Virus record (IMG/VR): IMGVR_UViG_2734482555_000011
DNA length: 48,574 nucleotides
Strand: one strand, 5' to 3'
From: a virus
Lineage: Duplodnaviria; Heunggongvirae; Uroviricota; Caudoviricetes
A program made the translations under genes and the position numbers. The notes below the pieces were generated by a model. It saw nothing but the letters and a program-made list of their open reading frames with translations. It was not told the DNA's origin and made no database searches. Positions 1-48,574 of the stretch are shown one piece after another (position 1 is the stretch's first letter; every line of letters starts with the position of its first letter).

Positions 1-1236
1 CTACGATAACCGCGCATTCAACATGGCTACCTGTTCGTCGTTCATGTCATCAATCCACATACCGTAAATTTCATACACCATCTGCGCAGTTTCATGCCCC
101 ATCTGGCTGGCTATAAACGCCGGGTTCGCTCCTGCCGTCAACAGCCAGCAGGCAAAAGTATGCCGCGTATGGTACGGATTACGGCGGCGAATACCAGCAC
201 GTTTTACTGCTGCATTCCATCTCGCACCCAAACTGCTTACCGAGTAATAAGGTTTCTGTTTTCCGTTACACACTCTGGGCATGAAAACAAAATGCAGTTT
301 TTGCTTTTCGGTTCTGCCGTACTCCCGATGATAAAAAGTGATTTCGCTTTTGCGATGATGCCCGGTCAGTTTGTATTGCTCCTTCAGTGCTTCAAGAGCA
401 GGCTGCAGTAGTGTTACCGTCCGGATCCCCGCATTTGTTTTTGGGGGACCGAACATATCCAGTATCGTCAGGTTTCTTCTGACATTCACAACTCCCTTCT
501 CGAAATCCACATCCTCCCACGCCAGAGCAGCCAGTTCCCCGTGACGAAGCCCGGAGTATACGGCAAATTTCCACAAGTTCTGGCTCTGTCCTTTTTCACT
601 TTCCATTAATGCATTGAATTCTGTTTTAGATAACGGGTCAGGCTTTATTCTGTTTCTCTGTAATTTCTTTACTCCTTCAAATGGTTTGGTTGATATAAAT
701 CCCGACTGATACGCAAAACGTAACAACGAACAGAGCAGGGCGATATAGTTATCAACTGTGCGCACGGTTCTTCCTTTTTTGTTGGATCTTGGATTATCCA
801 GGTAAAGCGTTTCTCCATGCAGCAGTTCATTCCGGTAGTTTAAGATATCGCTATAACGAATATGCGATATCGGAGTACTCTCACAAATTATTATCCTGAG
901 TGTTTTTAATTGTGATTTCGTTTTCTTCATTGTGTTTGTTGTTAACTCTGTTTCTTTAATTTTTGTCCAGATATCACAAAGCTCCCCGAACGTTTTTATG
1001 ACCCTCGTTGTCACCATTTTTGCCCCAGTGCTGGACTGGGGAAAACGTCTTAAATACTCAAACTCACCGGAATTGATTTCATGAACTATCAACGCTCTTA
1101 AATTCCCGGCTTTTTTAATGTTACTGTTAGTAACCTCCCAGCCTTTCAATGTTTCCCGACATCGTTTTCCTCGAAACATGAACCAGATGCGAATGTATTT
1201 ACCTCGAATCTCGACACCTGTTGGTAATTTAGACAT
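1..1236 (-). CDS. intR: Tyrosine integrase, Rac IntR-type
   Basis: Complete 411-aa minus-strand ORF (start 1236, stop codon at 1-3). Length and N-terminus MSKLPTGVEIRGKYIRIWF match my recollection of K-12 Rac IntR; HTRHTFA box near the C-terminus is typical of tyrosine recombinases. Confidence 0.9.
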   Translation of the reverse strand: MSKLPTGVEIRGKYIRIWFMFRGKRCRETLKGWEVTNSNIKKAGNLRALIVHEINSGEFEYLRRFPQSSTGAKMVTTRVIKTFGELCDIWTKIKETELTTNTMKKTKSQLKTLRIIICESTPISHIRYSDILNYRNELLHGETLYLDNPRSNKKGRTVRTVDNYIALLCSLLRFAYQSGFISTKPFEGVKKLQRNRIKPDPLSKTEFNALMESEKGQSQNLWKFAVYSGLRHGELAALAWEDVDFEKGVVNVRRNLTILDMFGPPKTNAGIRTVTLLQPALEALKEQYKLTGHHRKSEITFYHREYGRTEKQKLHFVFMPRVCNGKQKPYYSVSSLGARWNAAVKRAGIRRRNPYHTRHTFACWLLTAGANPAFIASQMGHETAQMVYEIYGMWIDDMNDEQVAMLNARLS

Positions 1237-1237
1237 A

Positions 1238-1453
1238 TCATGAGTCTTTGATAAACTGATTTATCTTTGGATAGTTATACCAGATAATCCCTCGCTTACT
1301 GTCTGGCTTCCCTAAAGGAGATACTCGTTTGAAGTGGAAGCCTTCCACCCAACAGTTCTGGCGGTATGCTTCAATTTGTCTGGCCCCCAGACCAGTGCGA
1401 AGCATCAGGCCGTATTCAACCATCCACTCTTCATTAAAGATTACTTGTGCCAT
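1238..1453 (-). CDS. xisR: Excisionase-like protein (XisR/YdaQ-like)
   Basis: Small minus-strand ORF immediately upstream of int. Internal ATG ([10 protein letters not shown]...) gives 71 aa, the size I recall for YdaQ; the track ORF extends to 1477. Confidence 0.7.
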
Positions 1454-1552
1454 CGCATCACCTCTGGCAGGCGCCAATGTTAGACTTAAATTGACGCCCG
1501 ATGTTGATTATTAATAATCAGCTATGAAGTTTTAATTTGAATACAATGCAAT

Positions 1553-1753
1553 TCACGAGGACTGAAGTTTCTCGCAATTAAAATTTATCAGTTTTACTTT
1601 CTGCTCTCTGGAAACGCCTGCTTCTTTTTTACCTGAGAGCATTTTTTCGCATTCTGATTTCGTTAGTTTAGATTTTGAATATCTTGTCCAGTTAGTAGGA
1701 GTGCCACCTTCCTTTTCAATAGTGGCGGTAATTTTATACATGAACACCTCCAT
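1553..1753 (-). CDS. ydaC: YdaC-like small protein
   Basis: Track ORF 1553..1813 (MVEV...MEVFMYKITATIEKEGG...). Position between xis and ralR as in K-12 Rac. Start uncertain: ATG at 1753 or ATG at 1741 preceded by GGAGG. Confidence 0.55.
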   Translation of the reverse strand: MEVFMYKITATIEKEGGTPTNWTRYSKSKLTKSECEKMLSGKKEAGVSREQKVKLINFNCEKLQSS

Positions 1754-1778
1754 TATTATTTCCAGTGGTTCGTTTATT

Positions 1779-1928
1779 TCATCGTTCGAGTGCTTCTTTT
1801 TCACTTCCACCATAACCGGTTCGGGATTCGCATCCGTTACACTTCGCTCGGTAATATCCTGAAATGGCTTTCACCGTTACTGATGGACAACCACAAAATG
1901 GACATGGTTTAACATTGTCATATCTCAT
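1779..1928 (-). pseudogene. ralR: Restriction-alleviation protein RalR/Lar, interrupted by in-frame TGA after codon 49
   Basis: Manual minus-strand translation from ATG at 1926-1928 gives MRYDNVKPCPFCGCPSVTVKAISGYYRAKCNGCESRTGYGGSEKEALER then TGA (plus 1779-1781); the same frame continues NKRTTGNNNGGVHV to TAA at 1734-1736, i.e. 64 codons if the TGA were sense. Not in the ORF track because it is under 60 aa. Confidence 0.6.
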
Positions 1929-1983
1929 AATTTTTCTCATAAAAATATTTCAAGTTGGCGGTGCATTACACCGCCAGGCTGAA

Positions 1984-2793
1984 TTATTCCTCTGAATTAT
2001 CGATTACACTGTATTCCCCGGTTAATACAGAGGAATCTGCAGGATCGATTGTCAGTGGTTCCTTTTCATCCATTGATACTGCACGCTGGATCTCAATTGA
2101 TACGGGCAGATATTTGAACAGGCGACGAATAGCCGTTTTCTTTGCCATTTCTTCCCAGTGAGTTACCCACGGCCCGTTATTACCAGCTTTACTCTGGCTG
2201 CGCACCAGCTCAATCTGTTTGCGCGTCATAACTTCAAACTGAGTACCTCCGTCTTTCAGTCTTGCGACAGCATAGACGTGGGTAACAGGGGCATCTTCGT
2301 TTTCTCCTGGGCGGTGTATTAACTTTTCATCAAGGCCAAATTCGAAATTAAACTCGTCACCTTCACGGACAACACGGGCTGACAGGCTGGCGATTTGACC
2401 TGAACGGCGAGCCAGATCAATCATGCCGCGATAGCCAATGATTAGCTGAACGTTTTTTTTACCGCTCTTTTCGTTTTTATTACCAAAAGGCAGTAAATAT
2501 GCATGACCGAGGGCGCTACCGGGCTCAAGTCCGAGCTGTGAACACTGTACGATTGCACTGACAAAACTCATAGTGTCACAGTTTCCTAACGCCGGAACTT
2601 TACGAATTTCTGTGGTGGCGATACGGATCATACGTTCAGCCGTCATATGGCGTGGAAGAGCTGCTGCCAGTTGCTCTTTCATTGATGGCTGGTTAATAAA
2701 ACTAATCACGTCGTTATTTTTAATTGCTGCTGGTGCACGGTTTCCCTGAGTTTTTTGCAGATCGGCTTTTGCGATTGGTGGTTGCTTAGTCAT
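1984..2793 (-). CDS. recT: RecT single-strand annealing recombinase
   Basis: Track ORF 1984..2850; internal start [18 protein letters not shown]... gives 269 aa, matching recalled K-12 RecT. Lies immediately downstream of recE with a small overlap. Confidence 0.9.
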
Positions 2794-5386
2794 TTGCATA
2801 TTCCTTAGCCCAGCGGGGCAGTGATAACGTCTTAATAGCTGGCCATTCATCGGTATTGAGGCAGTCAGCCAGGGTTCGCAGATTGCGGTGATATTCCAGC
2901 TGACCTGCCAGTTTTGCTTCTTCGCCCATCATGAAAATTTCAACCGGATAACGTCCGCATTCAATAGTTGTGCTGGCAACCAGAAAAACGAAAGTTGGCT
3001 GCACTCCAAACTGTGCTTCATAACCGTCACTGTAGAATGCATCCTGAACGTGATAGCGGTAGTCGTAATAAGCGGTTTTGAATCGTTGAATATCCGCCGT
3101 AGTTTTCACGTCCATGATCCAGTGAAATTCAGGGATAATTTTGTCCGGACGGCACCGACACAAAATTGCTGTTTCAGGATCTTCCCAGTAAATTGATGAT
3201 TCAGCGTGTCCGGCGCTTTCAACAAGCCATTGCCCCAGCGGCAAAGCCATAACGCTCTGATACATGAGTTCAATTTTCCGGCCTTCTTCGGCAGTGATAA
3301 CCGTTTTTCCTGTGCTTGCGCATTCCCTCAGAAACGCTTTCTCTTCTTCTTTTCCGGAGTTTGTCCGGCGGTTAAATTCAGGTGCTACGATAAAGCGGTT
3401 ACTGAATTCTTCCGGCTCAAGTACCCGGCAGTGGAAAGCGGTTCCTAAATCGAGCGTTTTTGTCTTTGTGGTGTCCACGGGGGCATTTTTACGCCACAAA
3501 TACAGTGCCGGAGTATCAGCAATGTCATCGAGCTGAGACTTACTGACACCGGGACCCGCGTGGTAATTCTCATTCGAAATTCCGTAATAAATACCTGGCT
3601 CTATGTCTTCTACGATTACGGGATCTGCGACTTCGCCAGTTTCATCACTGCAATCGCGATGCGGATCGCTGCCAGCATTCTCATTGTGCGGATGTTCAGC
3701 GCCTTCCATTTCCTCCGGATCATTTTCCTTAGCTTCAACCTGACTCTCTTCATCGAATGTTTCCTGGTATGTTGCGTCGCCCATCACCGCACCACAGTCA
3801 GGGCAGTTATCCCCGCCAGTCTGGCCGCAGGCATTGCAGGCTATTTCCGGTTCCTGTTGCACTACTGGCTCAGGTTGATTCATATCCGGGCTGGTTTTTT
3901 CCGTTTCTGGCTGGTTCTGGTACACACAATCGCGAGTCTGGATCCCCTTTACCCATTTCGGATCGTTCGGGTCGCTAATTCCGTCAACAAATTCACCACG
4001 TGATGCAGCAAGCAATTTATCGGCATCGACAGGATTTTTTGATGGAATGTTTTTCCGGGCTTCATGGAGTTCTGCCCGCAGTTCCTGATATTTCGCATCA
4101 ACAGAATTTACCTGTGACTGAGCATCCAGCGGCTGCGTGTCCTGATGATGTTCAGTTGCGTCCGGTTCCATTGTTTCAGCCTCTCCCTGTTCAACTGCCG
4201 TTGTTCCAGATGGTTGCGGTTTTTCTTCATCATCCTGTTTTCCTTCTTCTGTTACTCGCTGCGGCATCGGGGCAGAGGAGCGACCGCAGGCAATATCCAC
4301 GATTTCCGGATCAGGGTTGGCATGATCGGTTTCAGTCAGTACTTTGTTCAGATATTCAGTGACGTGCGCGGGGATGACCTCGATCCCAATTGGTGCTTCT
4401 TTTACGGACGCAACCACGATGGCGCGGGAATAATCCAGCCCGCCAGGCATGGTGATGAATTTGTCGCGGAAAACAGAAAAGGGCGGTTTATTTTCAGCGA
4501 TAATTTCCTCAATGCGTTTAGCGTGTGCCGGATGAAGGTTATAGATGTCCAGATCCATTGAACGGGCCAGTACGCCAGTGGCTACGTCCCGCGCCAGTGA
4601 CGTCAGATCGTGTACGAAACCTTCGCCGCGATCGGTGAGGTTTCCGCCGCCAGCATTAGCACCGGAAGCCGTGCGAGTGATGTGTGAAACACGATTACCC
4701 TTCATCCACTCTTTTGTCAGCAGTCCTCGATCGGTGTAGTCAGCGTTCAGGTATGCTTCGAAAAAAGCAGTTATCAGTCCCAGGTTTGAATTACCAGGAT
4801 TAGGGAAAACTTTGTCAGTGTCACGAACCAGTTTGTGGAGTTCGCGAATTTCCAGCGGGTCGAGCAGGCTGGTTTTGTGGGAAACAGCCAGGGCAGTAAC
4901 AGCCGGTAGTTCTTCAGCCCGAGCAATGTGTAATGCCTGGAGTCCGTCGCGTGAAACGTGCGTTACCGGTTTTTCGCTGCCGTGTTGAGCAAGCCAACGA
5001 ATGGGCAGTTCCTGGCCAGAAATTGGGAGTAGCATATTCTCCTCAATCTCAGTCATGTCTTCGCCGTTGACGTTGGTATTGCCTTGATAGTGAGCGTTGT
5101 CTGGTGCTGCTCCCGGTTTTAGTTCCCATGTCATGGAGTCTTTGCTGAGTTGATAGCGTTCACTCCAGGTAAAATCGATCTCACCTTCAGCGGGCAGGTC
5201 ATTAACGACAGGAAAATTCGTGGCAACAGCTTTAAAATAGCTGCTCAGTTTTTTACCTGACTTAACGATCAGGTAGTCCAGAGTGGCACAGGTCGATTCA
5301 AAATCGTTGCTTGCCCACAGGACGACGTCAGGTTCACCGGATGATTTTTTCGCTTTCCGTAACAGGAAGAGTGGTTTTGTGCTCAT
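2786..5386 (-). CDS. recE: Exodeoxyribonuclease VIII (RecE), full length
   Basis: 866-aa minus-strand ORF, same length as K-12 RecE; the C-terminal region is the part I associate with the exonuclease fold. Plus-strand ORFs inside it are antisense artefacts. Confidence 0.9.
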
Positions 5387-5487
5387 TGTTTTTTAACCTC
5401 AACTCAGATTAAAATTCGTTTTGTTCAGTGAATGATCTTGCCGGATACACACTGTTCATAGCCTGCGCCATACGCAGGCTATTTCTT

Positions 5488-5763
5488 TCAGATTTCACCT
5501 TTTAATTTCATTGCAATTAGAGTTGCCAGAAATTCGGCTTTTTTTTCTGCGGGCAGATTCTTTCCGATATGCACCAGGCACATTTTTTTGACACCTTCAT
5601 CAAGTGTTTTTACGTTGCCTGATGGACCATCGATATCAACCACAGTGAATGGGGTTTCTTTATTTTCTGTTTTAATTACGTAGCCAATGCGCTTTCCTTC
5701 CAGATTCACCTCGTGAACAATGTCATCGGTAGTTACAACAGTGGCTTCATAATTGGTAATCAT
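5488..5763 (-). CDS. racC: RacC protein
   Basis: Track ORF 5488..5811; internal start MITNYEATVVTTDDIVHEVNLEGKRIGYV... gives 91 aa as recalled for RacC. Confidence 0.8.
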   Translation of the reverse strand: MITNYEATVVTTDDIVHEVNLEGKRIGYVIKTENKETPFTVVDIDGPSGNVKTLDEGVKKMCLVHIGKNLPAEKKAEFLATLIAMKLKGEI

Positions 5764-5837
5764 GTTTTTCTCCTTAATTAAGGTTGAGCGAATACCTGCC
5801 ATTTCTGGCATAAATTCAGTTTCGAATAGTCAATTAA

Positions 5838-6008
5838 TTAAAGTTCATGTGCCATCTGGTCTTTTTCGGCACAAGCTTCACTGCAATATTTTCTCGGTTC
5901 GTCTTTTGATAAAATCCCGTGCATGAAGTGAAGCATTCTTTCAATAGCTTTGCTTTCTTCAACGTCTTTTTTGCAAAGGTGGTAAGCACATTTTATTTTC
6001 TTAGTCAT
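5838..6008 (-). CDS. ydaE: YdaE, small cysteine-containing protein
   Basis: Manual translation [56 protein letters not shown] (56 aa); under the 60-aa track threshold. Start overlaps the kilR stop. Confidence 0.7.
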   Translation of the reverse strand: MTKKIKCAYHLCKKDVEESKAIERMLHFMHGILSKDEPRKYCSEACAEKDQMAHEL

Positions 6009-6229
6009 CACCATGACTCCGCCTTTACAGGTAAACCATCACGACCGAGGAAGACTTTAATCATGCGGTCAGTAATGCATGTTTTTGTGGTCAGGTTACG
6101 AATATATAGTTTTCGCTTTTTAATATTGTTTGCCGAGGCAATATATGTCCGGCCTTCATGAAGAACATAATCGCCAGGAGTCACACACTGACGTGGTATT
6201 TCATCAGTTCCGAAGTGATGTGCAATCAT
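6008..6229 (-). CDS. kilR: KilR, FtsZ-targeting cell-division inhibitor
   Basis: Track ORF 6008..6241; start at [29 protein letters not shown]... gives 73 aa, matching recalled K-12 KilR. Confidence 0.8.
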
Positions 6230-6670
6230 AATTATCTCCATTTTTACAAATGAACTTTGTTGATGCGGTGCCTGGTGCCTCCAGGTGACTGCAACCAGTT
6301 AACAATTACAGTCGGCTTTCCCACCCAAACCAATAAGGACTAACATGACTTTTAACTGTGCCACGTGCGCTTAGCCGCATTCACCGCATCACAAAATTCA
6401 CTTTAAAAAGGGCGGACATCAGCCGAACTTCAAGAAAAAAACTGATGCCGCCAGGACTACACACAGCAATGTCGTTATTTACAACCGGAGGCGCACTCCC
6501 ACCATTTAAATTTAACAGACAAGACCGACTCTTTATGGATATCGGAAATGCGCCTTCGTGTTGTGCCCGGTTTTATTTCACCACCTCCGGGCTTCGGTGG
6601 TCTCGGCTATACCCCTACAGCGAGAGCTTGTGTTAACATTTCAATACCCTTACAGTTGAGAGTTATTGAT

Positions 6671-7159
6671 ATGTTGGATGTATTTACTCCATTGTTGAAA
6701 CTTTTTGCTAACGAGCCACTCGAAATACTTATGTATACGATTATCATTTTTGGTCTCACTCTCTGGCTGATACCGAAAGAGTTTACTGTCGCATTCAATG
6801 CTTATACTGAAATACCTTGGCTCTTTCAGATTATCGTTTTTGCCTTTTCTTTCGTGGTCGCCATTTCCTTCTCAAGATTGCGAGCACATATTCAAAAGCA
6901 TTATTCATTACTACCAGAGCAACGAGTATTGCTTCGTTTATCTGAGAAAGAAATCGCTGTATTTAAAGATTTCCTTAAAACAGGAAATCTTATTATCACT
7001 TCTCCTTGCCGTAACCCGGTTATGAAAAAATTAGAACGGAAGGGCATCATTCAACATCAGAGTGATAGCGCAAACTGTTCTTATTATCTCGTCACCGAAA
7101 AATACTCCCATTTTATGAAGTTATTCTGGAACAGCAGGAGTAGACGTTTTAATCGTTAG
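6671..7159 (+). CDS. sieB: Superinfection exclusion protein SieB
   Basis: Track ORF 6548..7159; internal start MLDVFTPLLKLFANEPLEILMYTIIIFGL... gives 162 aa with hydrophobic segments, as recalled for SieB. Opposite orientation to its neighbours, as in K-12 Rac. Confidence 0.8.
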   Translation: MLDVFTPLLKLFANEPLEILMYTIIIFGLTLWLIPKEFTVAFNAYTEIPWLFQIIVFAFSFVVAISFSRLRAHIQKHYSLLPEQRVLLRLSEKEIAVFKDFLKTGNLIITSPCRNPVMKKLERKGIIQHQSDSANCSYYLVTEKYSHFMKLFWNSRSRRFNR

Positions 7160-7311
7160 CTTACTGTGTGCTTCTCCAACCATCGGCGCGCACCAGTTTC
7201 GGTTTTAAATGTTTTGCTTTTGGTATACGTCATGGCAGTGAACGTTCCATCCTGGTTGGGGAACACGCCGCACACCAGGGATTCGTTGTTGCCGAGGTCG
7301 ATTTTTTGCAT
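7156..7311 (-). CDS. ydaF: YdaF small protein
   Basis: Manual minus-strand translation MQKIDLGNNESLVCGVFPNQDGTFTAMTYTKSKTFKTETGARRWLEKHTVS (51 aa); under the track threshold; convergent 4-nt overlap with sieB. Confidence 0.6.
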   Translation of the reverse strand: MQKIDLGNNESLVCGVFPNQDGTFTAMTYTKSKTFKTETGARRWLEKHTVS

Positions 7312-7321
7312 TTTGCGAATC

Positions 7322-7456
7322 TCACATCTTGTTGCTGTGTATAGCGACTTCTGCCTGCCAGAGATCCCAGTCGTTGCTGCGTAAAGCCTGCACAGCCTGG
7401 TTGTAAGTGATACCGCAACAATCCATCAAATACTGAACTACTTCGTAATGCACCAT
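7322..7456 (-). CDS. ydaG: YdaG small protein
   Basis: Track ORF 7322..7504; internal start MVHYEVVQYLMDCCGITYNQAVQALRSNDWDLWQAEVAIHSNKM (44 aa) matches recalled YdaG. Confidence 0.65.
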   Translation of the reverse strand: MVHYEVVQYLMDCCGITYNQAVQALRSNDWDLWQAEVAIHSNKM

Positions 7457-7624
7457 CTTATCTCTCCCCTTAACGCCGGGTGGCGGAACTGAAACCTGCT
7501 GCACTGCAAAATCTGAACCCTGCCGTCATGTTCATACGCCTCGGGCTGGCTACTTAACCCCTGACCACTGCCTGGTAACTCGAAGTATTGCCCTGCGTTC
7601 TGTGGGGCGGGGTGGGTTGGTAGG

Positions 7625-7675
7625 TATATAATGTACTTTGTGTTCATTGATGTAAAGTACTATAAGTACATTTTG
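7625..7675. promoter_or_regulatory. OL-like operator/promoter region with TGTACT-type repeats
   Basis: TGTACT at 7632-7637, palindromic AGTACT at 7656-7661 and AGTACA (reverse complement of TGTACT) at 7665-7670, in the gap between ydaG and the repressor gene. Promoter hexamers not resolved. Confidence 0.4.
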
Positions 7676-7746
7676 TGTGTAAAAAAATGAGATGGGATAA
7701 AGTGAAGCACAAACCCGGAGGGGGACGCTACCGGATTTATGCTGGT

Positions 7747-8184
7747 TTAAGAGGCTTTTTGTTTTTTCTTTCGTGCTAGCTCTTCGTAAATTGCATTGTA
7801 CTTCTGTTTTTTCTCCTCAAGAGTTTTTAAAAGTTCATCTGTCTCACTGTCAGGGAGCTCGTCCAGAAGGTCAATGATGATTTTTTGTCTTGGATTTAAC
7901 TCCTGATAGAAACGTACCTGTCCACTTTCTTCTGTATCCTCTCCCAAAAGATAGGTTGGTGTTGTTCCAATGAGTGTTGCTAATTCCCTTAATTTCTCTC
8001 GGCGAGGAATTGTTTCGCCATTAAACCATTTGCTAACCGCTTTTGGTGTTAATTTCATTCGACGGGCAATTTCTGCCTGCCTTCCATGTTGTTCATAACC
8101 AGCGTTTTCACAGGCTAGCGCAAGCCTACTGGCGAACTCTTTACGCGCTTTATCTTCATGAACCATAAGTTCAATGATATTCAC
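7747..8184 (-). CDS. racR: CI-like HTH prophage repressor (RacR position)
   Basis: 145-aa ORF (GTG at 8184; alternative ATG at 8166) with an HTH-like segment (GRQAEIARRMKLTPKAVSKWFNG). Sits where racR sits in K-12 Rac, divergent from the Cro-like gene. The allele may differ from K-12, so the symbol is by synteny. Confidence 0.6.
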   Translation of the reverse strand: MNIIELMVHEDKARKEFASRLALACENAGYEQHGRQAEIARRMKLTPKAVSKWFNGETIPRREKLRELATLIGTTPTYLLGEDTEESGQVRFYQELNPRQKIIIDLLDELPDSETDELLKTLEEKKQKYNAIYEELARKKKQKAS

Positions 8185-8245
8185 TCTTGAATGTACTGTC
8201 AGTTCTGTTATAGCATGTACTCAAAGTTCACATTGTGAGGGTGAT
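8185..8245. promoter_or_regulatory. OR/PR-like divergent promoter-operator region
   Basis: Plus-strand TTGAAT (8187-8192), 16-nt spacer, TATAGC (8209-8214), then GAGGG and the ATG at 8246. TGTACT repeats at 8192-8197 and 8215-8220 overlap and follow the hexamers. Confidence 0.45.
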
Positions 8246-8500
8246 ATGAACCAGAAAACACTTGAAGATGTAATCAAAACTGTTCGCGTTTCTGTTGTGG
8301 CCGACGTTTGTGGTGTCAGCCAAAGAGCAATCTACAAATGGATGGATAACGGAAAATTGCCTCGCACAGAATATACCGGCGAAACAAATTACGCTGAAAA
8401 AATCGCTCATGCATCAAACGGATTATTTTCTGCTGATGTAATTTTAACTATTGGCAGAAATAAAACTACTACGAAAAAGCTGATGGGAGTTGATTCATGA
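8246..8500 (+). CDS. Cro-like HTH regulator (YdaS position)
   Basis: Track ORF 8174..8500; ATG at 8246 follows GAGGG. Contains an HTH-like segment (VADVCGVSQRAIYKWMDNGKLP). The sequence does not look like the K-12 YdaS I recall, so no symbol is given. Confidence 0.6.
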   Translation: MNQKTLEDVIKTVRVSVVADVCGVSQRAIYKWMDNGKLPRTEYTGETNYAEKIAHASNGLFSADVILTIGRNKTTTKKLMGVDS

Positions 8501-8919
8501 AAATCAAGCATGAGCACATCGAGTCAGTGTTGTTAGCCCTGGCAGCCGAAAAAGGGCAGGCATGGGTAGCCAATGCCATTACTGAAGAATATCTGCGCCA
8601 GGGGGGCGGCGAATTGCCCCTGGTACCAGGCAAGGACTGGAATAATCAGCAGAATATCTATCACCGTTGGTTGAAAGGTGAAACGAAAACGCAAAGAGAA
8701 AAAATTCAGAAGCTGATCCCAGCAATTCTGGCAATCCTTCCGCGCGAGCTGCGTCACCGACTCTGCATCTTCGATACCCTGGAACGCCGTGCATTACTGG
8801 CGGCGCAGGAAGCGTTAAGTACGGCAATTGATGCGCATGATGATGCAGTCCAAGCCGTTTACCGGAAAGCGCATTTCAGCGGCGGCGGGTCTTCCGACGA
8901 TTCTGTCATTGTTCATTAA
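8497..8919 (+). CDS. ydaT: YdaT (CII-like regulator, toxic when derepressed)
   Basis: 140-aa ORF MKIKHEHIESVLLALAAEKGQAWVANAITEEYLRQGGGELPLVPGKDW...; matches recalled K-12 YdaT in sequence and length. ATGA overlap with the upstream gene. Confidence 0.8.
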   Translation: MKIKHEHIESVLLALAAEKGQAWVANAITEEYLRQGGGELPLVPGKDWNNQQNIYHRWLKGETKTQREKIQKLIPAILAILPRELRHRLCIFDTLERRALLAAQEALSTAIDAHDDAVQAVYRKAHFSGGGSSDDSVIVH

Positions 8920-8931
8920 GCAAAAGTTTCC

Positions 8932-9789: not shown

Positions 9790-9795
9790 CTGACC

Positions 9796-39086: not shown

Positions 39087-39336
39087 NNNNNNNNNNNNNN
39101 NNNNNNNNNNNNNNNNNNNNNNNNNNNNNNNNNNNNNNNNNNNNNNNNNNNNNNNNNNNNNNNNNNNNNNNNNNNNNNNNNNNNNNNNNNNNNNNNNNNN
39201 NNNNNNNNNNNNNNNNNNNNNNNNNNNNNNNNNNNNNNNNNNNNNNNNNNNNNNNNNNNNNNNNNNNNNNNNNNNNNNNNNNNNNNNNNNNNNNNNNNNN
39301 NNNNNNNNNNNNNNNNNNNNNNNNNNNNNNNNNNNN
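39087..39336. other. Run of N (250 nt), masked or unsequenced
   Basis: Literal n characters across the L/K junction. Confidence 1.
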
Positions 39337-39954
39337 CCGGAGGAGTATTTCCGGATGGCTCCGGAGGACTGGCTGCAGGCAGAGATGCAGGGTGAGATTG
39401 TGGCGCTGGTCCACAGCCACCCCGGTGGTCTGCCCTGGCTGAGTGAGGCCGACCGGCGGCTGCAGGTGCAGAGTGATTTGTCGTGGTGGCTGGTCTGCCG
39501 CGGGGCGATTCACAAGTTCCGCTGTGTGCCGCATCTCACCGGGCGGCGCTTTGAGCACGGGGTGACGGACTGTTACACGCTGTTCCGGGACGCTTACCAT
39601 CTGGCGGGAATTGAGATGCCAGATTTTCATCGTGAGGACGACTGGTGGCGTAATGGTCAGAATCTCTATCTGGATAATCTGGAGGCTACAGGGCTGTATC
39701 AGGTGCCGTTGTCAACGGCGCAGCCGGGCGATGTGCTGCTGTGCTGTTTTGGTTCATCGGTGCCGAATCATGCCGCCATTTACTGTGGTGACGGCGAGCT
39801 GCTGCACCATATTCCTGAACAACTGAGTAAACGAGAGAGGTACACCGACAAATGGCAGCGACGCACACACTCCCTCTGGCGTCACCGGGCATGGCACGCA
39901 TCTGCCTTTACGGGGATTTGCAGCGATTTGGCCGCCGCATCGACCTTCGTGTGA
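39337..39954 (+). CDS. K: Tail assembly protein K (lambda gpK-like), 5' end lost in N run
   Basis: Frame after the N block reads ...IVALVHSHPGG... (JAB/MPN-like HxH) and ...GVTDCYTLFRDAYHLAGIE...HAAIY (NlpC/P60-like Cys/His), ending at TGA 39952-39954. Confidence 0.8.
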   Translation, partial: PEEYFRMAPEDWLQAEMQGEIVALVHSHPGGLPWLSEADRRLQVQSDLSWWLVCRGAIHKFRCVPHLTGRRFEHGVTDCYTLFRDAYHLAGIEMPDFHREDDWWRNGQNLYLDNLEATGLYQVPLSTAQPGDVLLCCFGSSVPNHAAIYCGDGELLHHIPEQLSKRERYTDKWQRRTHSLWRHRAWHASAFTGICSDLAAASTFV

Positions 39955-40499
39955 AAACGGGGGCCGAAGCCATCCGGGCACTGGCCACACAGCTCCCGGC
40001 ATTTCGTCAGAAACTGAGCGACGGCTGGTATCAGGTGCGCATTGCCGGGCGTGATGCAGGCGAAAATGAATTATCTGCCCGTCTTAATGAACCGCTGGCA
40101 AATGGTGCCGTGATCCACATCGTTCCGCGTCTGGCGGGTGCCAAAAGTGGCGGTGTGTTTCAGGCGGTGCTGGGTGCGGCGCTGATTGCGGTGGCATGGT
40201 GGAACCCTGTGGGCTGGCTGGGGGCCGCGGCTGTATCGGGTATGTATGCAGCAGGGGCCAGTATGATCCTGGGTGGTGTGGCGCAGATGCTGGCACCGAA
40301 AGCCAGGACGCCCACGGCAGCCAGTACAGATAACGGCAAACAGAACACGTATTTCTCGTCACTGGATAACATGGTTGCCCAGGGTAATGTTCTGCCTGTT
40401 CTGTACGGGGAAATGCGCGTGGGGTCACGTGTGGTTTCTCAGGAGATCAGCACGGCAGACGAAGGGGATGGTGGTCAGGTTGTGGTGATTGGTCGCTGA
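39852..40499 (+). CDS. I: Tail assembly protein I (lambda gpI-like)
   Basis: MAATHTLPLASPGMARICLYGDLQRFGRRIDLRVKTGAEAIRALATQLPAF... and C-terminus ...GEMRVGSRVVSQEISTADEGDGGQVVVIGR match lambda gpI as recalled. True start uncertain because the ORF overlaps K. Confidence 0.75.
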   Translation: MAATHTLPLASPGMARICLYGDLQRFGRRIDLRVKTGAEAIRALATQLPAFRQKLSDGWYQVRIAGRDAGENELSARLNEPLANGAVIHIVPRLAGAKSGGVFQAVLGAALIAVAWWNPVGWLGAAAVSGMYAAGASMILGGVAQMLAPKARTPTAASTDNGKQNTYFSSLDNMVAQGNVLPVLYGEMRVGSRVVSQEISTADEGDGGQVVVIGR

Positions 40500-40517
40500 T
40501 GCAAAATGTTTTATGAG

Positions 40518-40545
40518 AAACCGCCTGCGGGCGGTTTTGTCGTTT
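40518..40545 (+). terminator. Hairpin with T-rich tail between I and J
   Basis: AAACCGCC / TGCG / GGCGGTTT followed by TGTCGTTTAT; function (terminator or attenuator) unknown. Confidence 0.35.
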
Positions 40546-40559
40546 ATGGAGCGTGAGGA

Positions 40560-43500
40560 ATGGGTAAAGGCAGCAGTAAGGGGCATACCCCGCGCGAAGC
40601 GAAGGACAACCTGAAGTCCACGCAGCTGCTGAGTGTGATCGATGCCATCAGCGAAGGGCCGGTTGAAGGTCCGGTGGATGGATTAAAAAGCGTGCTGCTG
40701 AACAGTACGCCGGTGCTGGACAATGAGGGGAATACCAACATCTCCGGCGTCACGGTGGTGTTCCGGGCAGGTGAGCAGGAGCAGTCACCGCCGGAGGGAT
40801 TTGAATCCTCCGGCTCCGAGACGGTGCTGGGTACGGAAGTGAAATATGACACGCCGATCACCCGGACCATCACGTCGGCAAACATTGACCGACTGCGTTT
40901 TACCTTCGGTGTACAGGCACTGGTGGAAACCACCTCAAAGGGAGACAGGAATCCGTCTGAAGTTCGCCTGCTGGTTCAGATACAGCGTAACGGTGGCTGG
41001 GTGACGGAAAAAGACATCACCATTAAGGGCAAAACCACCTCGCAGTATCTGGTCTCGGTGGTGGTGGATAACCTGCCTCCGCGCCCGTTCAGTATCCGGA
41101 TGCGCAGGATGACACCGGACAGCACCACAGACCAGCTGCAGAACAAAACGCTCTGGTCGTCATACACCGAAATCATCGATGTGAAACAGTGCTACCCGAA
41201 CACTGCACTGGTCGGCGTACAGGTGGACTCGGAGCAGTTCGGCAGCCAGCAGGTGAGTCGTAATTATCATCTTCGCGGGCGCATTCTGCAGGTGCCGTCG
41301 AACTATAACCCGCAGACGCGACAATACAGCGGTATCTGGGACGGAACGTTAAAACCAGCATACAGCAACAACATGGCCTGGTGTCTGTGGGATATGCTGA
41401 CCCACCCGCGCTACGGCATGGGGAAACGTCTTGGTGCGGCGGATGTGGACAAATGGGCGCTGTATGTCATCGGCCAGTACTGCGACCAGNNNNNNNNNNN
41501 NNNNNNNNNNNNNNNNNNNNNNNNNNNNNNNNNNNNNNNNNNNNNNNNNNNNNNNNNNNNNNNNNNNNNNNNNNNNNNNNNNNNNNNNNNNNNNNNNNNN
41601 NNNNNNNNNNNNNNNNNNNNNNNNNNNNNNNNNNNNNNNNNNNNNNNNNNNNNNNNNNNNNNNNNNNNNNNNNNNNNNNNNNNNNNNNNNNNNNNNNNNN
41701 NNNNNNNNNNNNNNNNNNNNNNNNNNNNNNNNNNNNNNNNNNNNNNNNNNNNNNNNNNNNNNNNNNNNNNNNNNNNNNNNNNNNNNNNNNNNNNNNNNNN
41801 NNNNNNNNNNNNNNNNNNNTTGACCCGGATAACGGCTGGGAGACGGCGACAGAGCTTGTGGAGGATACGCAGGCCATTGCCCGTTACGGTCGTAACGTCA
41901 CGAAGATGGATGCTTTTGGCTGTACCAGCCGGGGGCAGGCACACCGCGCCGGGCTGTGGCTGATTAAAACAGAACTGCTGGAAACGCAGACCGTGGACTT
42001 CAGCGTGGGCGCAGAAGGGCTTCGCCATGTGCCGGGCGATGTCATTGAAATCTGTGATGATGACTATGCGGGTATCAGCATCGGCGGGCGCGTGCTGGCG
42101 GTAAACAGCCAGACCCGGACGCTGACGCTCGACCGTGAAATCACGCTGCCATCCTCCGGTACCATGCTGATAAGCCTGGTTGACGGAAGTGGCAATCCGG
42201 TCAGCGTGGAGGTTCAGTCCGTCACCGACGGCGTGAAGGTGAAAGTGAGCCGTGTTCCTGACGGCGTTGCTGAATACAGCGTGTGGGGGCTGAAGCTGCC
42301 GACGTTGCGCCAGCGCCTGTTCCGCTGTGTGNNNNNNNNNNNNNNNNNNNNNNNNNNNNNNNNNNNNNNNNNNNNNNNNNNNNNNNNNNNNNNNNNNNNN
42401 NNNNNNNNNNNNNNNNNNNNNNNNNNNNNNNNNNNNNNNNNNNNNNNNNNNNNNNNNNNNNNNNNNNNNNNNNNNNNNNNNNNNNNNNNNNNNNNNNNNN
42501 NNNNNNNNNNNNNNNNNNNNNNNNNNNNNNNNNNNNNNNNNNNNNNNNNNNNNNNNNNNNNNNNNNNNNNNNNNNNNNNNNNNNNNNNNNNNNNNNNNNN
42601 NNNNNNNNNNNNNNNNNNNNNNNNNNNNNNNNNNNNNNNNNNGCTGACAGTCCGGGCGGTAAATGCCTGGGGACAGCAGGGCGATCCGGCGTCGGTATCG
42701 TTCAGGATTGCCGCACCGGTAGCACCGTCGCGGATTGAGCTGACGCCGGGCTATTTTCAGATAACTGCCACGCCGCATCTTGCGGTTTATGATCCGACGG
42801 TACAGTTTGAGTTCTGGTTCTCGGAAACGCGGATTACCGATATCAGGCAGGTTGAAACCACAGCCCGCTACCTTGGCGCGGGGCTGTACTGGATAGCCGC
42901 CAGTATCAATATCAAACCGGGCCATGATTATTACTTTTATATCCGCAGTGTGAACACCGTTGGCAAATCGGCATTCGTGGAGGCCGTCGGTCGGGCGAGC
43001 GATGATGCGGAAGGTTACCTGGATTTTTTCAAAGGCAAGATAACCGAATCCCATCTCGGTAAAGAGCTGCTGGAAAAAGTTGATCTGACGGAGGATAACG
43101 CCAGCAGACTGGATGAGTTTTCGAAAGAGTGGAAGGACGCTAACGATAAATGGAATGCGATGTGGGGCGTCAAAATTGAGCAGACCAAAGACGGCAAACA
43201 TTATGTCGCGGGTATTGGCCTCAGCATGGAGGACACGGAGGAAGGCAAGCTGAGCCAGTTTCTGGTTGCCGCCAATCGTATCGCGTTTATTGACCCGGCA
43301 AACGGGAATGAAACGCCGATGTTTGTGGCGCAGGGCAACCAGATATTCATGAATGACGTGTTCCTGAAGCGCCTGACAGCCCCCGCCATTACCAGCGGTG
43401 GCAGTCCTCCGGTATTTTCCCTGACATCAGACGGAAAGCTGACCGCTAAAAATGCGGATATCAGTGGTAGTGTGAATGCGAACTCAGGAACGCTCAACAA

Positions 43501-43990
43501 TGTCACGATTAACCAGAACTGTACGATTAAGGGCATGCTGGAGGCGACCCAGGTCAGAGGGGATTTCGTTAAAGCTGTATCAAAAGCCTTCCCGAAAAAA
43601 GTCGGTACGTGGGGTAACACGGAAACACCAGACGGTACGGTTACAGTCACCATCAGCGATGATCATAACTTTGACCGCCAGATTATTATTCCGCCCATTA
43701 TTTTTAACGGTATAGCGTATGACGATCCGGGGAGCGGAAATAACCCGGGAGGCACGCGATACACGGGTTATGGTTTTGAAGTTCGCAAAAACGGCGTATT
43801 AATCGCATCCAGAGAAACTAAAGGGGCCATTCCCGGTAGTTACAGTGCAGTTATTGATATGCCTAGTGGTGGTGGTAGCGTCACTCTGGAGTTTAAGATT
43901 TTCCAGAAAGGCAATCAGGGGGCAGGCAATATCACCGACTGTACGGTGATTGTGACCAAAAAAGCGGCTTCCGGCATCAGTATTCGTTGA
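40560..43990 (+). CDS. J: Central tail fibre / host specificity protein J (lambda gpJ-like), with two internal N runs
   Basis: N-terminus [34 protein letters not shown]... matches lambda J as recalled; frame stays open across N blocks 41490-41819 and 42332-42642 and ends at TGA 43988-43990. Residues inside the N blocks are unknown. Confidence 0.85.
41490..41819. other. Run of N (330 nt), masked or unsequenced
   Basis: Literal n characters inside J. Confidence 1.
42332..42642. other. Run of N (311 nt), masked or unsequenced
   Basis: Literal n characters inside J. Confidence 1.
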
Positions 43991-44060: not shown

Positions 44061-44867
44061 ATGCGTAAAGTTTGTGCCGCCATTTTGTCCGCAGCCATTT
44101 GTCTGGCCGTATCCGGTGCGCCTGCATGGGCGTCTGAACATCAGTCCACGCTGAGCGCGGGGTATCTTCATGCCCGGACCAACGTTCCCGGCAGTGATGA
44201 TCTGAACGGGATTAACGTGAAATACCGTTATGAGTTTACGGATACGCTGGGGCTGGTGACGTCATTCAGCTATGCAGGAGACAAGAATCGCCAGCTGACC
44301 CGTTACAGCGATACCCGCTGGCATGAAGATTCCGTGCGTAACCGCTGGTTCAGCGTGATGGCGGGGCCGTCTGTGCGCGTGAATGAATGGTTCAGCGCGT
44401 ATGCGATGGCGGGTGTGGCTTACAGCCGTGTGTCGACTTTCTCCGGGGATTATCTCCGCGTAACTGACAACAAGGGGAAAACGCACGACGTGCTGACCGG
44501 AAGTGATGACGGTCGCCACAGCAACACGTCTCTGGCGTGGGGAGCTGGCGTGCAGTTTAACCCGACCGAATCCGTGGCCATTGATATTGCTTATGAAGGC
44601 NNNNNNNNNNNNNNNNNNNNNNNNNNNNNNNNNNNNNNNNNNNNNNNNNNNNNNNNNNNNNNNNNNNNNNNNNNNNNNNNNNNNNNNNNNNNNNNNNNNN
44701 NNNNNNNNNNNNNNNNNNNNNNNNNNNNNNNNNNNNNNNNNNNNNNNNNNNNNNNNNNNNNNNNNNNNNNNNNNNNNNNNNNNNNNNNNNNNNNNNNNNN
44801 NNNNNNNNNNNNNNNNNNNNNNNNNNNNNNNNNNNNNNNNNNNNNNNNNNTCGGTTATAAATTCTGA
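44061..44867 (+). CDS. lom: Lom-like outer membrane protein (Ail/Lom family), with internal N run
   Basis: Signal peptide MRKVCAAILSAAICLAVSGAPAWA, then beta-barrel-like sequence resembling lambda Lom as recalled; C-terminus ...GYKF after the N block. Confidence 0.75.
   Translation: MRKVCAAILSAAICLAVSGAPAWASEHQSTLSAGYLHARTNVPGSDDLNGINVKYRYEFTDTLGLVTSFSYAGDKNRQLTRYSDTRWHEDSVRNRWFSVMAGPSVRVNEWFSAYAMAGVAYSRVSTFSGDYLRVTDNKGKTHDVLTGSDDGRHSNTSLAWGAGVQFNPTESVAIDIAYEGXXXXXXXXXXXXXXXXXXXXXXXXXXXXXXXXXXXXXXXXXXXXXXXXXXXXXXXXXXXXXXXXXXXXXXXXXXXXXXXXXXXXGYKF
44601..44850. other. Run of N (250 nt), masked or unsequenced
   Basis: Literal n characters inside lom. Confidence 1.
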
Positions 44868-44921: not shown

Positions 44922-44925
44922 TGGG

Positions 44926-47856
44926 GTGAATATGGCAGTAAAGATTTCAGGTGTACTGAAAGACGGCACAGGAAAACCGGTACAGAACTGCACAATCCAG
45001 CTGAAAGCAAAACGTAACAGCACCACGGTGGTGGTGAACACGCTGGCCTCAGAAAATCCGGATGAAGCCGGGCGTTACAGCATGGACGTTGAGTACGGTC
45101 AGTACAGCGTTATTCTGTTGGTGGAAGGATTCCCGCCGTCACATGCCGGGACCATCACCGTGTATGAAGATTCCCGACCCGGTACGCTGAATGATTTTCT
45201 CGGTGCCATGACGGAGGATGATGCCCGTCCGGAGGCACTGCGCCGTTTTGAGCTGATGGTGGAAGAGGTGGCGCGTAACGCGTCCGCGGTGGCACAGAAC
45301 ACGGCAGCCGCGAAGAAATCAGCCAGCGATGCCAGCACATCAGCCCGTGAGGCGGCAACCCATGCGACTGATGCTGCAGATTCAGCACGTGCAGCCAGCA
45401 CGTCAGCCGGACAGGCCGCTTCGTCGGCTCAGTCAGCGTCTTCCAGCGCAGGAACGGCATCAACAAAGGCCACTGAAGCCTCAAAAAGTGCTGCCGCTGC
45501 AGAGTCCTCAAAAAGCGCGGCGGCTACCAGTGCCGGTGCGGCGAAAACGTTAGAAACGAATGCGGCAGCGTCACAACAATCAGCAGCCACTTCTGCATCC
45601 ACCGCGACCACGAAAGCGTCAGAAGCTGCCACCTCAGCCCGGGATGCGTCGGCTTCAAAAGAGGCGGCAAAATCATCAGAAACGAACGCATCATCAAGCG
45701 CCAGTAGCGCAGCTTCCTCGGCGACGGCGGCTGCAAATTCTGCGAAGGCGGCCAAAACGTCCGAGACGAACGCCAGGTCTTCTGAAACGGCAGCGGGACA
45801 GAGTGCCTCAGCTGCGGCAGGCTCAAAAACAGCGGCTGCGTCGTCTGCCAGCGCCGCGTCAACAAGTGCCGGGCAGGCCTCAGCCAGTGCCACCGCCGCC
45901 GGAAAATCGGCAGAAAGCGCCGCATCATCCGCTTCAACAGCCACAACGAAGGCTGGCGAAGCCACTGAGCAGGCCACGGCAGCAGCGAGGTCAGCTTCCG
46001 CAGCGAAGACATCCGAAACGAACGCGAAAGCGTCGGAAACCCGTGCAGAATCCTCAAAAACGGCTGCCGCATCGTCCGCCAGTTCGGCGGCGTCATCGGC
46101 ATCATCGGCGTCTGCTTCAAAAGATGAGGCGACCAGACAGGCGTCAGCAGCGAAGGGCAGCGCCACGACGGCATCCACGAAGGCGACAGAGGCTGCTGGT
46201 AGTGCGACGGCAGCAGCTCAGAGCAAAAGTACGGCGGAATCTGCAGCAACGCGCGCTGAGACAGCGGCAAAACGGGCAGAGGATATTGCATCCGCCGTGG
46301 CGCTTGAGGATGCGAGCACGACGAAAAAGGGGATAGTACAGCTCAGTAGTGCGACTAACAGCACTTCCGAGTCACTGGCGGCAACACCAAAAGCCGTTAA
46401 GGCCGCGTATGACCTGGCTAACGGGAAATACACCGCACAGGATGCAACGACAGCACAGAAAGGGATAATCCAGCTAAGCAGCGCGACCAACAGCACGTCT
46501 GAAACGCTGGCGGCAACGCCAAAGGCAGTAAAAGCAGCCAATGACAATGCTGAGAAACGTCTGCAGAAAGATCAGAACGGTGCGGATATCCCTGGCAAAG
46601 ACACCTTTACGAAAAATATTGGTGCCTGCCGTGCCTTCGGTGGGTCAGTAAGCACAACAACAGGAAACTGGACGACTGCACAGTTTATCGAGTGGCTGGA
46701 TTCTCAGGGAGCATTTAACCATCCATACTGGATGTGCAAGGGTTCCTGGTCTTATGGCAATAATAAAATCATTACTGATACTGGCTGCGGTAATATTCAT
46801 CTCGCCGGAGCTGTCATTGAAGTAATGGGGATAAAGTCAGCGATGACGATCCGCATTACCACTCCGACCACATCCAGCGGTGGCGGAACAACCAACGCCC
46901 AGTTTACCTATATTAATCACGGAACAGATTATTCACCTGGCTGGCGAAGGGACTATAACTCCAGAAATAAGCCAACGGCATCAGAGATCGGGGCGCTACC
47001 GTCAGGTGGAACAGCAGTATCATCAGTTAATCTGGCTTCAAAAGGTCGGGTAGCCGCGCTGACAGACAATACGCAGGGGGCAGCAGGTCTTGAGTTATAC
47101 GAGGTGTATAACAACGGATATCCAACAGCGTATGGAAATATCATTCACCTGAAAGGGATGACAGCCGTTGGCGAAGGTGAGTTACTCATCGGCTGGAGTG
47201 GTACAAGCGGTGCTCATGCTCCGGCATTTATTCGTTCACGACGGGATACGACCGACGCAAACTGGTCGCCGTGGGCGCAGCTTTACACCTCGGCTCATCC
47301 TCCTGCAGAGTTTTATCCAGTCGGTGCACCAATCCCGTGGCCATCAGATACCGTTCCGTCTGGTTATGCCCTGATGCAGGGGCAGACTTTTGACAAATCT
47401 GCTTACCCGAAACTTGCAGCCGCTTATCCGTCAGGCGTGATCCCTGATATGCGTGGCTGGACGATTAAGGGCAAGCCCGCCAGTGGTCGTGCCGTATTGT
47501 CTCAGGAACAGGATGGCATTAAATCGCACACCCACAGCGCCAGCGCATCCAGTACGGATTTGGGGACGAAAACCACATCGTCGTTTGATTACGGCACTAA
47601 ATCCACGAATAACACCGGGGCGCATACGCACAGTCTGAGCGGCTCTACAAGTTCAGCTGGGGCCCACCAACATAGTCAGACTGGGCCCAGAACGAATAGC
47701 GGGAGTCAACCTACTGGAATGTTTCCGGCAGGGAGTACTCAAGTTAGCGGGACTAATCAGGTTGGTATCAGTGGCTCATTAACCAGTGGCACCTCCCAAT
47801 GGGTAGGTAAATCATCTTCAGAAGGAAACCATACACACTCACTGTCCGGCACAGCA
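44926..47856 (+). CDS. stf: Side tail fibre protein Stf, 3' end lost in N run
   Basis: N-terminus [33 protein letters not shown]..., long Ala/Ser/Thr-rich repetitive shaft, tandem duplicated KGI(V/I)[11 protein letters not shown](S/T)[11 protein letters not shown] motif and His-rich HTHS motifs near the readable end; runs into N block at 47857. Confidence 0.8.
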
Positions 47857-48106
47857 NNNNNNNNNNNNNNNNNNNNNNNNNNNNNNNNNNNNNNNNNNNN
47901 NNNNNNNNNNNNNNNNNNNNNNNNNNNNNNNNNNNNNNNNNNNNNNNNNNNNNNNNNNNNNNNNNNNNNNNNNNNNNNNNNNNNNNNNNNNNNNNNNNNN
48001 NNNNNNNNNNNNNNNNNNNNNNNNNNNNNNNNNNNNNNNNNNNNNNNNNNNNNNNNNNNNNNNNNNNNNNNNNNNNNNNNNNNNNNNNNNNNNNNNNNNN
48101 NNNNNN
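47857..48106. other. Run of N (250 nt), masked or unsequenced
   Basis: Literal n characters across the stf/tfa junction. Confidence 1.
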
Positions 48107-48574
48107 CCTGCAAACAGTACCGATATTGCACCGCCAGATATTCCGGCTGGTTTCGTGGCTGTTTTCAACAGTGATGAGTCATCGTGGCATCTCGTTGAAG
48201 ATCATCGGGGTAAAACGGTTTATGACGTGGCTTCCGGCGACGCGTTATTTATTTCTGAACTCGGCTCATTACCGGAAAATGTCACCTGGTTATCCCCGGA
48301 AGGGGAGTTTCAGAAGTGGAACGGCACAGCCTGGGTGAAGGATACGGAAGCAGAAAAACTGTTCCGGATCCGGGAGGCGGAAGAAACAAAAAACAGCCTG
48401 ATGCAGGTAGCCAGTGAGCATATAGCGCCGCTTCAGGATGCTGTGGATCTGGAGATCGCAACGGAGAAAGAAACCTTGTTGCTGGAAGCTTGGAAAAAGT
48501 ATCGGGTGTTGCTGAACCGTGTTGATACATCAACTGCACCGGATATTGAATGGCCAGTAGCACCTATAGGGTAA
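48107..48574 (+). CDS. tfa: Tail fibre assembly protein Tfa, 5' end lost in N run
   Basis: Frame after the N block reads [53 protein letters not shown]...[12 protein letters not shown], matching TfaR/TfaQ-type proteins as recalled, whose N-terminus would lie in the N block. Stop at 48572-48574. Confidence 0.8.

Follow-up and report, generated by a model that had tools for sequence, protein, structure and literature searches.

The virus record IMGVR_UViG_2734482555_000011 of IMG/VR is a stretch of 48,574 nucleotides (hereafter the window) that begins at the stop of a leftward integrase gene (1-1236) and ends with the taa stop codon of a tail-fibre-assembly gene, tfa. Between them lie, in order, int/xis, a recET early-left operon, an immunity region, the ydaTUV replication genes, a Q-like gene, a lysis cassette, trkG, packaging and head genes, tail genes, and J, lom, stf and tfa (Table 1). 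This module order, proposed in an initial annotation made from the letters alone, is borne out by the open reading frames, by the annotation of a near-identical copy in Escherichia coli NCTC10444 and by Pfam and PHROG matches. Genes were called from the RefSeq annotation of that copy together with Pfam, PHROG and NCBIfam scans, RNA features were taken from an Rfam scan, and frequencies were obtained by megablast against 5,426 complete E. coli genomes; a scan of the window found no tRNA genes. We conclude with high confidence that the window belongs to a single temperate, lambdoid siphovirus from the Rac lineage and holds all of its genes, without the attachment (att) ends.

A contiguous copy in E. 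coli NCTC10444

By megablast the whole window is contiguous in NCTC10444 (NZ_LR134092.1, 2715461-2763809, minus strand). Over positions 1-39086 the two copies are 99.96% identical, with 13 mismatches and a single 1-nt indel, none of which falls in the frame of a late gene. From 39337 on, identity is 95-98%, against 99.97% before the masked stretch in L, which indicates that the K-I-J-lom-stf-tfa end was swapped recently between otherwise identical prophages, with the switch lying under that mask. The late genes of the NCTC10444 copy are annotated as intact, with no late-gene pseudogenes among them. The window carries intR and xisR, and in NCTC10444 the repeats that they would use are seen: the attL and attR sequences of K-12 are found at two places, one in ttcA beside intR and the other, ttcC, between uspF and sitA. 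The att-to-att length is ~52.5 kb and includes sitABCD, an iron/manganese transporter operon (NCTC10444 2711375-2715226) situated between tfaR and the ttcC attR repeat, where K-12 has pinR-ynaE-ynaM instead.

Six runs of N, amounting to 1,612 nt, interrupt the window (20075-20295, 39087-39336, 41490-41819, 42332-42642, 44601-44850 and 47857-48106) and fall in R/Rz, L, J (two runs), lom and the stf/tfa junction. Their lengths do not equal the real ones (221 versus 236, 250 versus 242, 330 versus 280, 311 versus 344 and 250 versus 43 nt, window versus NCTC10444, the last pair being the mask in lom), so that reading frames through the runs cannot be judged and window coordinates 3' of each mask are offset from the true genome. 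For the same reason, open reading frames read through the masks (lom at 44061-44867, 'stf' to 48174, L and K) are artefactual in length. Outside the masks, each late gene that can be read is open over the length expected of it.

At least 80% of the left half of the window is present in 95 of the 5,426 genomes, and at least 80% of the right half in 486. Near-identical copies occur in RefSeq genomes and also among the phage records of GenBank (vB_EcoS-...R and SPF_0923); we considered the vB_EcoS-...R records as evidence of activity and rejected them, as they are predicted prophages of clinical isolates and not induced phages. Complete Rac-like prophages at ttcA are already known, common and published, and nothing in the window departs from known lambdoid biology; the novelty implied by the initial annotation is thus not supported.

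Derivation of K-12 Rac

The initial annotation viewed the window as a near-complete Rac-type prophage of which K-12 Rac is a deleted relative, and proposed whole-element alignment against K-12 Rac and lambda as a check. Alignment of the K-12 Rac region (NC_000913.3, 1411899-1434958) to the window and to the unmasked NCTC10444 copy supports this view, and maps three deletion junctions to the base. The collinear blocks comprise 1-7622 (98.7% identity), 8491-11014 (98.3%), 20296-22552 (99.6%) and 34110-35869, that is, ydaY-ynaA (99.9%), followed by 44263-44600 (lomR, 98-100%), which is broken in K-12 by an IS5 inserted in lom at ~44472, and by the stfR N-terminus and tfaR (95%). rzoR, trkG, ynaK, ydaY, ynaA, lomR, stfR and tfaR are thus all found in order, at 95-99.9%, with three gaps each closed by a single junction. 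The first deletion removed 9,123 bp, from inside ydaW (after 11014) to inside Rz; the second, 11,557 bp, from codon ~85 of a ParB-like gene to the middle of the gene for the tail chaperone G; and the third, 8,368 bp, from codon ~312 of the tape measure gene to inside lom. Each junction shows a 2-bp microhomology (TA, AA and CA, respectively), and the deletions sum to 29,048 bp. K-12 Rac is therefore this element minus three microhomology-mediated deletions, plus an IS5 in lom, a swapped immunity cassette (racR/ydaS, where the window has a DicA-like/Cro-like pair) and a different right end, with pinR-ynaE-ynaM; the C-terminus of stf differs as well. The deletions account for rzpR, ynaK, ydaY, ynaA and lomR of K-12 as stumps of Rz, the ParB-like gene, chaperone G, the tape measure gene and lom. 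The statement of the initial annotation that K-12 Rac has an IS5 insertion and is without genes for Q, holin, endolysin, terminase, portal and capsid was confirmed, the insertion being in lomR. Among the complete genomes the K-12-type junction of the second deletion occurs in 348, as opposed to 1,093 with the undeleted ParB junction, and the 'complete' state is accordingly the commoner one.

Two other explanations of these data were weighed. The window could represent a lambdoid phage that is not related to Rac beyond a common early-left module, in which case K-12 Rac would not derive from such an element; the immunity region (7623-8490), which is unlike racR/ydaS, and the differing C-terminal part of stf and region past tfa would fit this. 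However, all segments of K-12 Rac save immunity, IS5 and the right end have collinear counterparts at 95-99.9%, and the gaps between them, in ydaW/Rz, ParB/G and tape measure/lom, close by single junctions with 2-bp microhomology that explain the K-12 pseudogenes, so that we hold this explanation to be very unlikely. Still less probable, and in our view already effectively refuted, is a chimera of a Rac remnant with a second, lambda-like prophage, whether joined in assembly or arrayed in tandem. The late region does hold a lambda-like L-K-I-J-stf-tfa set, and lambdoid prophages, with segments that are repeated, are numerous in E. coli genomes (median, 3 matching places in each). Against this, closed genomes show the same contiguous order, with the whole window in one stretch between the ttcA/ttcC att repeats in NCTC10444; each function is present in one copy; and the remnants found in K-12 Rac (trkG, ynaK, ydaY, ynaA, lomR and stfR) lie dispersed along the late region, their order unchanged and their identity 99% or above. 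Descent of K-12 Rac by deletion from a single element like the one in the window remains the reading that we adopt.

Mosaic late region and accessory genes

Table 1. Features of the window, with positions, strand and the matches on which each assignment rests.
Feature	Position	Strand	Match or remark
intR, tyrosine integrase	1-1236	-	Open reading frame; 98.7% DNA identity to K-12 intR; annotated in NCTC10444 copy beside ttcA
xisR, excisionase	1238-1453	-	Open reading frame; 98.7% DNA identity to K-12 xisR
Rac early-left operon: rcbA/DUF1187, ralR, recT, recE, racC, ydaE, kilR, ydaF, ydaG	1553-7456	-	98.7% to K-12 Rac (1-7622)
RalA small RNA	1557-1735	+	Rfam, 225 bits
recT	1984-2793	-	Within early-left operon
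recE	2786-5386	-	Within early-left operon
sieB	6671-7159	+	Within early-left region
Immunity region	7623-8500		No alignment to K-12 racR/ydaS across 7623-8490
Operator-like repeats ATGTACT-N-GTTC	7631, 8191, 8215		Flank both sides of repressor gene
DicA-like repressor, 139 aa	7747-8166	-	HTH_3 only; DicA subfamily match
Cro-like HTH protein	8246-8500	+	
Early-right/replication genes: ydaT (CII-like), ydaU (DUF1376), ydaV (DnaC/IstB-like ATPase), ydaW, DUF977	8497-11758	+	Pfam
Full-length ydaW (DUF1627)	10565-11326	+	
Low-GC cargo block	11957-14919		GC 0.37-0.41; absent in K-12 Rac; Pfam
HEPN-family protein, 320 aa	11957-12919		Homologues carry HEPN_RES_NTD1 and RiboL-PSP-HEPN
333-aa protein	12935-13936		Weak C-terminal GNAT similarity; some homologues named GNAT acetyltransferase
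DUF1971 (TehB-N-like) protein, 120 aa	14557-14919	-	Pfam
DUF1367 (YbcN-like), YbcO nuclease, Q-like gene	15709-17137	+	Pfam
Q-like antiterminator (DUF1133)	16595-17137	+	PHROG 753 'anti-termination protein Q-like', E 2e-79
STnc100 small RNA	17885-18071	+	Rfam; 3' of Q-like gene
Two lipoproteins with TolA C-terminal domain	18182-18610, 18761-19156	+	Pfam TolA, E 2e-23 and 1e-14; lipoboxes IIGC and VAGC
Phage-21-type lysis cassette	19408-20566 (end approximate)	+	Mask 20075-20295 over R/Rz junction
Pinholin S	19408-19623	+	Pfam Phage_holin_2_1 (P21 holin), E 2e-35; start MKSMDK
SAR endolysin	19623 into mask	+	Phage_lysozyme; N-terminal SAR segment
Rz/Rz1 spanins	mask to ~20566	+	
trkG, potassium transporter moron	20704-22161	+	99.6% to K-12 trkG region; GC 0.32-0.40
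ParB_N-fold protein, 262 aa	22299-23087	+	Pfam ParB_N; motif AGHGR
TAGT-family GT-A glycosyltransferase	23062-24012	+	Pfam TAGT, E 4e-34; overlaps ParB gene, directly upstream of TerS
TerS	24203-25297	+	Pfam
TerL	25269-26579	+	Terminase_6N/6C; 51% aa to Kagunavirus, 43% to Jersey-type phages
Portal (DUF4055)	26582-27988	+	69% aa to HK639
MuF-like	27969-29084	+	50% aa to HK639
Scaffold DUF6651	29117-29953	+	61% aa to HK639
P22-coat-fold major capsid protein	30052-31191	+	75% aa to HK639
Neck and proximal tail: 58-aa protein, Ad1, Hc1, Neck1, tail terminator	from 31234	+	PHROG, Pfam
Tail tube, 320 aa	32989-33951	+	~70% aa to temperate Klebsiella and Erwinia siphoviruses
G/GT chaperone	34000-34461; T frame to ~34770	+	Slippery A_AAA_AAG at 34449-34455; open -1 frame
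Tape measure, 1077 aa	34935-38168	+	Lambda H only 27% aa
Tail tip	38161-43990	+	N runs 39087-39336, 41490-41819, 42332-42642
M	38161-38499	+	42% aa to lambda
L	38499 into mask	+	93% aa to lambda
K	to 39954	+	96% aa to lambda
I	39852-40499	+	80% aa to lambda
J	40560-43990	+	To lambda: N-terminal two-thirds 97% aa, C-terminal third 73%
lom	44061 into mask 44601-44850	+	41% aa to lambda
stf, side tail fibre	44926 into mask 47857-48106	+	Stf N-terminus 88% aa to lambda
tfa	mask to 48574	+	92% aa to lambda

The late region is a patchwork to which four or more donor lineages contributed, with sharp borders at or near gene edges, and arose through recombination among lambdoid phages. Such a mosaic had been proposed, and the sharp steps in identity at 38477, inside the 39087-39336 mask and at 43546 support it. 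DNA likeness to lambda (NC_001416), at 90-95%, runs from 38477 (22 nt before L) to 43546 inside J and resumes in the N-terminus of stf and in tfa; in the whole-element alignment it is confined to these parts, that is, to the tail tip and stf/tfa. The gene order and the ~5 kb of tail-tip DNA that are 90-95% identical to lambda place the element among the lambdoid phages. It does not belong with lambda proper (Lambdavirus), whose cos terminase and E/D head have no counterpart in the window, the TerL being of the Terminase_6N/6C type. No match was found in the window to lambda Nu1, A, B, C, D, E, Z, U, V, G, T, Q, NinB, NinG, NinH, O or P, nor any detectable similarity to cI/cro. The initial annotation was thus right that head and proximal tail are not those of lambda (head, terminase, V, G, T, U and Z homologues were not found), and also in its G/GT gene, which has a slippery site at 34449 and an open -1 frame, and in the 1077-aa length of the tape measure. 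Its statement that M, L, K, I, J and lom closely match lambda stands for L, K, I and the N-terminal two-thirds of J but fails for M, Lom and the C-terminal third of J; conversely, the Stf N-terminus and Tfa, which it did not list, are also close to lambda. Since the C-terminal third of J is only 73% identical, the receptor may differ from that of lambda.

The head genes resemble those of HK639 (NC_016158), including a small head protein (62% amino acid identity), although the terminase, neck, tube, tail tip, immunity, replication and lysis functions of that phage are unrelated or distantly related to those of the window. The Terminase_6 domains of TerL and its nearest relatives, in Kagunavirus and Jersey-type phages, point to headful (pac) packaging. 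At the right end, an Rfam 'IS009' match falls within tfa (48336-48534). An exact search with the 82-mer at the right end of the window showed the tfa allele to be common to 12 IMG/VR contigs (viral_contigs); these share only that allele with the window, and their downstream flanks are unlike both NCTC10444 and K-12. The same 82-mer had no match in genome_contigs.

Upstream of the structural genes, the lysis cassette is, as had been claimed, of the phage 21 type, with a pinholin and a SAR endolysin: amino acid identity to phage 21 (OL657228) is 90% for S21, 98% for R21, 93-94% for Rz21 and 100% for Rz1, and the cassette DNA is 91% identical. The R/Rz junction, masked in the window, is intact in NCTC10444; lambda Rz1 is 98% identical to the Rz1 of the window. 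The region before the cassette differs from phage 21, in which Q21 and tRNA genes precede S21, whereas the window has the DUF1133 Q-like protein, STnc100 and the two TolA-domain lipoproteins. The Q-like protein shows no similarity to lambda Q or Q21. NinB, NinG, NinH and Q of lambda are all without a match, and the 'nin' label of the initial annotation is positional only. Terminator-like hairpins sit between the Q-like gene and the holin, which is consistent with Q-dependent late expression. The two predicted TolA-domain lipoproteins could serve in the periplasm as TolA-III decoys for phages or colicins that are Tol-dependent; the first of the two genes is labelled a tolA pseudogene in RefSeq.

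Further to the left, the HEPN-family protein encoded at 11957-12919 is a candidate stand-alone abortive-infection or toxin moron. Its homologues are widespread in Enterobacterales and Aeromonas, and in Aeromonas they occur singly at prophage edges beside terminase. We considered a two-gene system formed with the adjacent gene (12935-13936) and rejected it, because homologues of the first gene occur alone in other contexts. PADLOC, run on ten cargo and accessory proteins, found no known defence system and has no model for the 11957-12919 protein; its sole strong match was to the ParB-like N-terminal segment of a model for a Type II methyltransferase, and all other matches had E values of ~1e-4 or weaker. 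PDB sequence searches with two cargo proteins gave no match.

The ParB-fold gene, of which K-12 ynaK represents the first ~84 codons (the second deletion starting after 22552), forms a pair with the TAGT-family glycosyltransferase gene, and the two products match PHROG 620 and 842. The TAGT-family protein has an invariant DDD motif. Its structure model is confident for residues 1-215 only and resembles generic GT-A enzymes in the PDB (TM 0.3-0.4), a level of similarity that supports the fold class and no more. The order ParB, TAGT, TerS, TerL, portal is seen again in three unrelated lineages of phage whose terminases belong to different families, and no TET/JBP dioxygenase was seen near the pair at the loci of these lineages. 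A 2026 paper describes ParB-dependent thymine dioxygenases that occur with glycosyltransferases near phage terminases (PMC13229309); a dioxygenase-free ParB/TAGT pair does not seem to be accounted for there. It is conceivable, though we consider it rather unlikely, that ParB and TAGT make up a self-contained ParB-dependent modification module that would need no TET/JBP dioxygenase and would glycosylate either the DNA of the phage or a protein of packaging or of the host.

Immunity, inducibility and life cycle

The early-left operon, with recE, recT, ralR, kilR, sieB and the RalA RNA, is that of Rac, whereas RacR/YdaS are replaced by the DicA-like repressor and a different Cro-like protein, so that the element is probably heteroimmune to K-12 Rac. 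Operator-like repeats on both sides of the repressor gene fit a functional immunity region. Of the 13 substitutions that separate the window from NCTC10444, two (at 7662 and 8183) lie in or beside these repeats. The 139-aa repressor has no S24 peptidase domain detectable by Pfam, no LexA box (CTGT-N8-ACAG) occurs anywhere in the window, and no antirepressor family was detected among its proteins. Neither the autopeptidase repressor nor the LexA-controlled antirepressor of SOS-inducible, lambda-type prophages was therefore found.

Full-length Rac-like prophages described earlier, Sp10/CP-933R of O157:H7 and KingRac, offer the closest published parallels; all are at ttcA, where the NCTC10444 copy of the window element also lies. 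Sp10 of O157 Sakai resembles the window in its ExoVIII-type recombination genes, its DnaC-type loader, its repressor without a peptidase motif and its morphogenesis genes, which are all intact; it is not induced by mitomycin C, excises spontaneously and is transferred to K-12 at low frequency (PMC2669165; PMC4632033), and its K-12 lysogens give no visible particles (PMC2669165). KingRac, a 46,834-bp prophage of a mouse commensal E. coli, replaces K-12 Rac in the mouse gut, is weakly induced, forms particles seen by electron microscopy and lysogenises K-12 in vivo (PMC6731689).

A structurally complete prophage could nonetheless be functionally dead, cryptic like K-12 Rac, because of point mutations, masked lesions, an oversized genome or a locked repressor, and several points weigh both for this and against an intact phage. 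The six masked stretches lie inside essential genes and could hide frameshifts or stops in this copy; the att sites fall outside the window; and an induction route is not evident from a repressor without a peptidase domain when neither LexA box nor antirepressor is found. Moreover, the ~52.5 kb of the NCTC10444 version, swollen by sitABCD and trkG cargo, exceeds the genome of HK639 (49.6 kb) and could strain headful packaging, and the behaviour of Sp10, which gives no particles in K-12 lysogens and no response to mitomycin C, and of the poorly induced KingRac is in line with a defect. On the other side stand the open late frames outside the masks, the 99.96%-identical copy free of late-gene pseudogenes, and the conservation of the late region, at no less than 98% identity, across hundreds of genomes, which hints that it spread recently or is under selection; in addition, Sp10 does transfer to K-12, and KingRac lysogenises it and makes particles. 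We take a dead prophage to be a serious possibility, though not the one we favour. The suggestion in the initial annotation that the element may be inducible accordingly holds in part: the particle functions are all present and intact outside the masks, but the type of repressor, the lack of a LexA box and the precedents of Sp10 and KingRac speak against ready induction. Particle production by this copy is plausible, with the chances about even; induction by mitomycin C or UV is doubtful, and any particles would probably not arise through classical RecA-mediated repressor cleavage.

If the prophage with full gene content is functional, IntR and XisR would integrate and excise it at ttcA, and the DicA-type repressor, bound to the ATGTACT-N-GTTC operators, would silence the leftward (recET, kilR) and rightward (cro-like, ydaT, ydaU, ydaV) operons. 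The DUF1133 Q-like antiterminator would then read past terminators into the pinholin/SAR endolysin/spanin cassette and the late operon. A headful-type terminase would package the DNA into an HK639-type capsid, and this would be joined to a tail with a non-lambda tube and the 1077-aa tape measure, with a lambda-type L-K-I-J tip at its end and side fibres of Stf/Tfa. Scaled from lambda H, a tape measure of this size would predict a flexible tail some 160-190 nm long.

Mitomycin C or UV may be the wrong test of induction for this element, whose repressor does not belong to the self-cleaving kind. Of the side observations, the conserved pair of a ParB-fold protein and a TAGT glycosyltransferase upstream of terminase is the one most worth following. 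Lastly, the comparison yields, as a useful by-product, a base-level map of the origin of the textbook Rac remnant of K-12.

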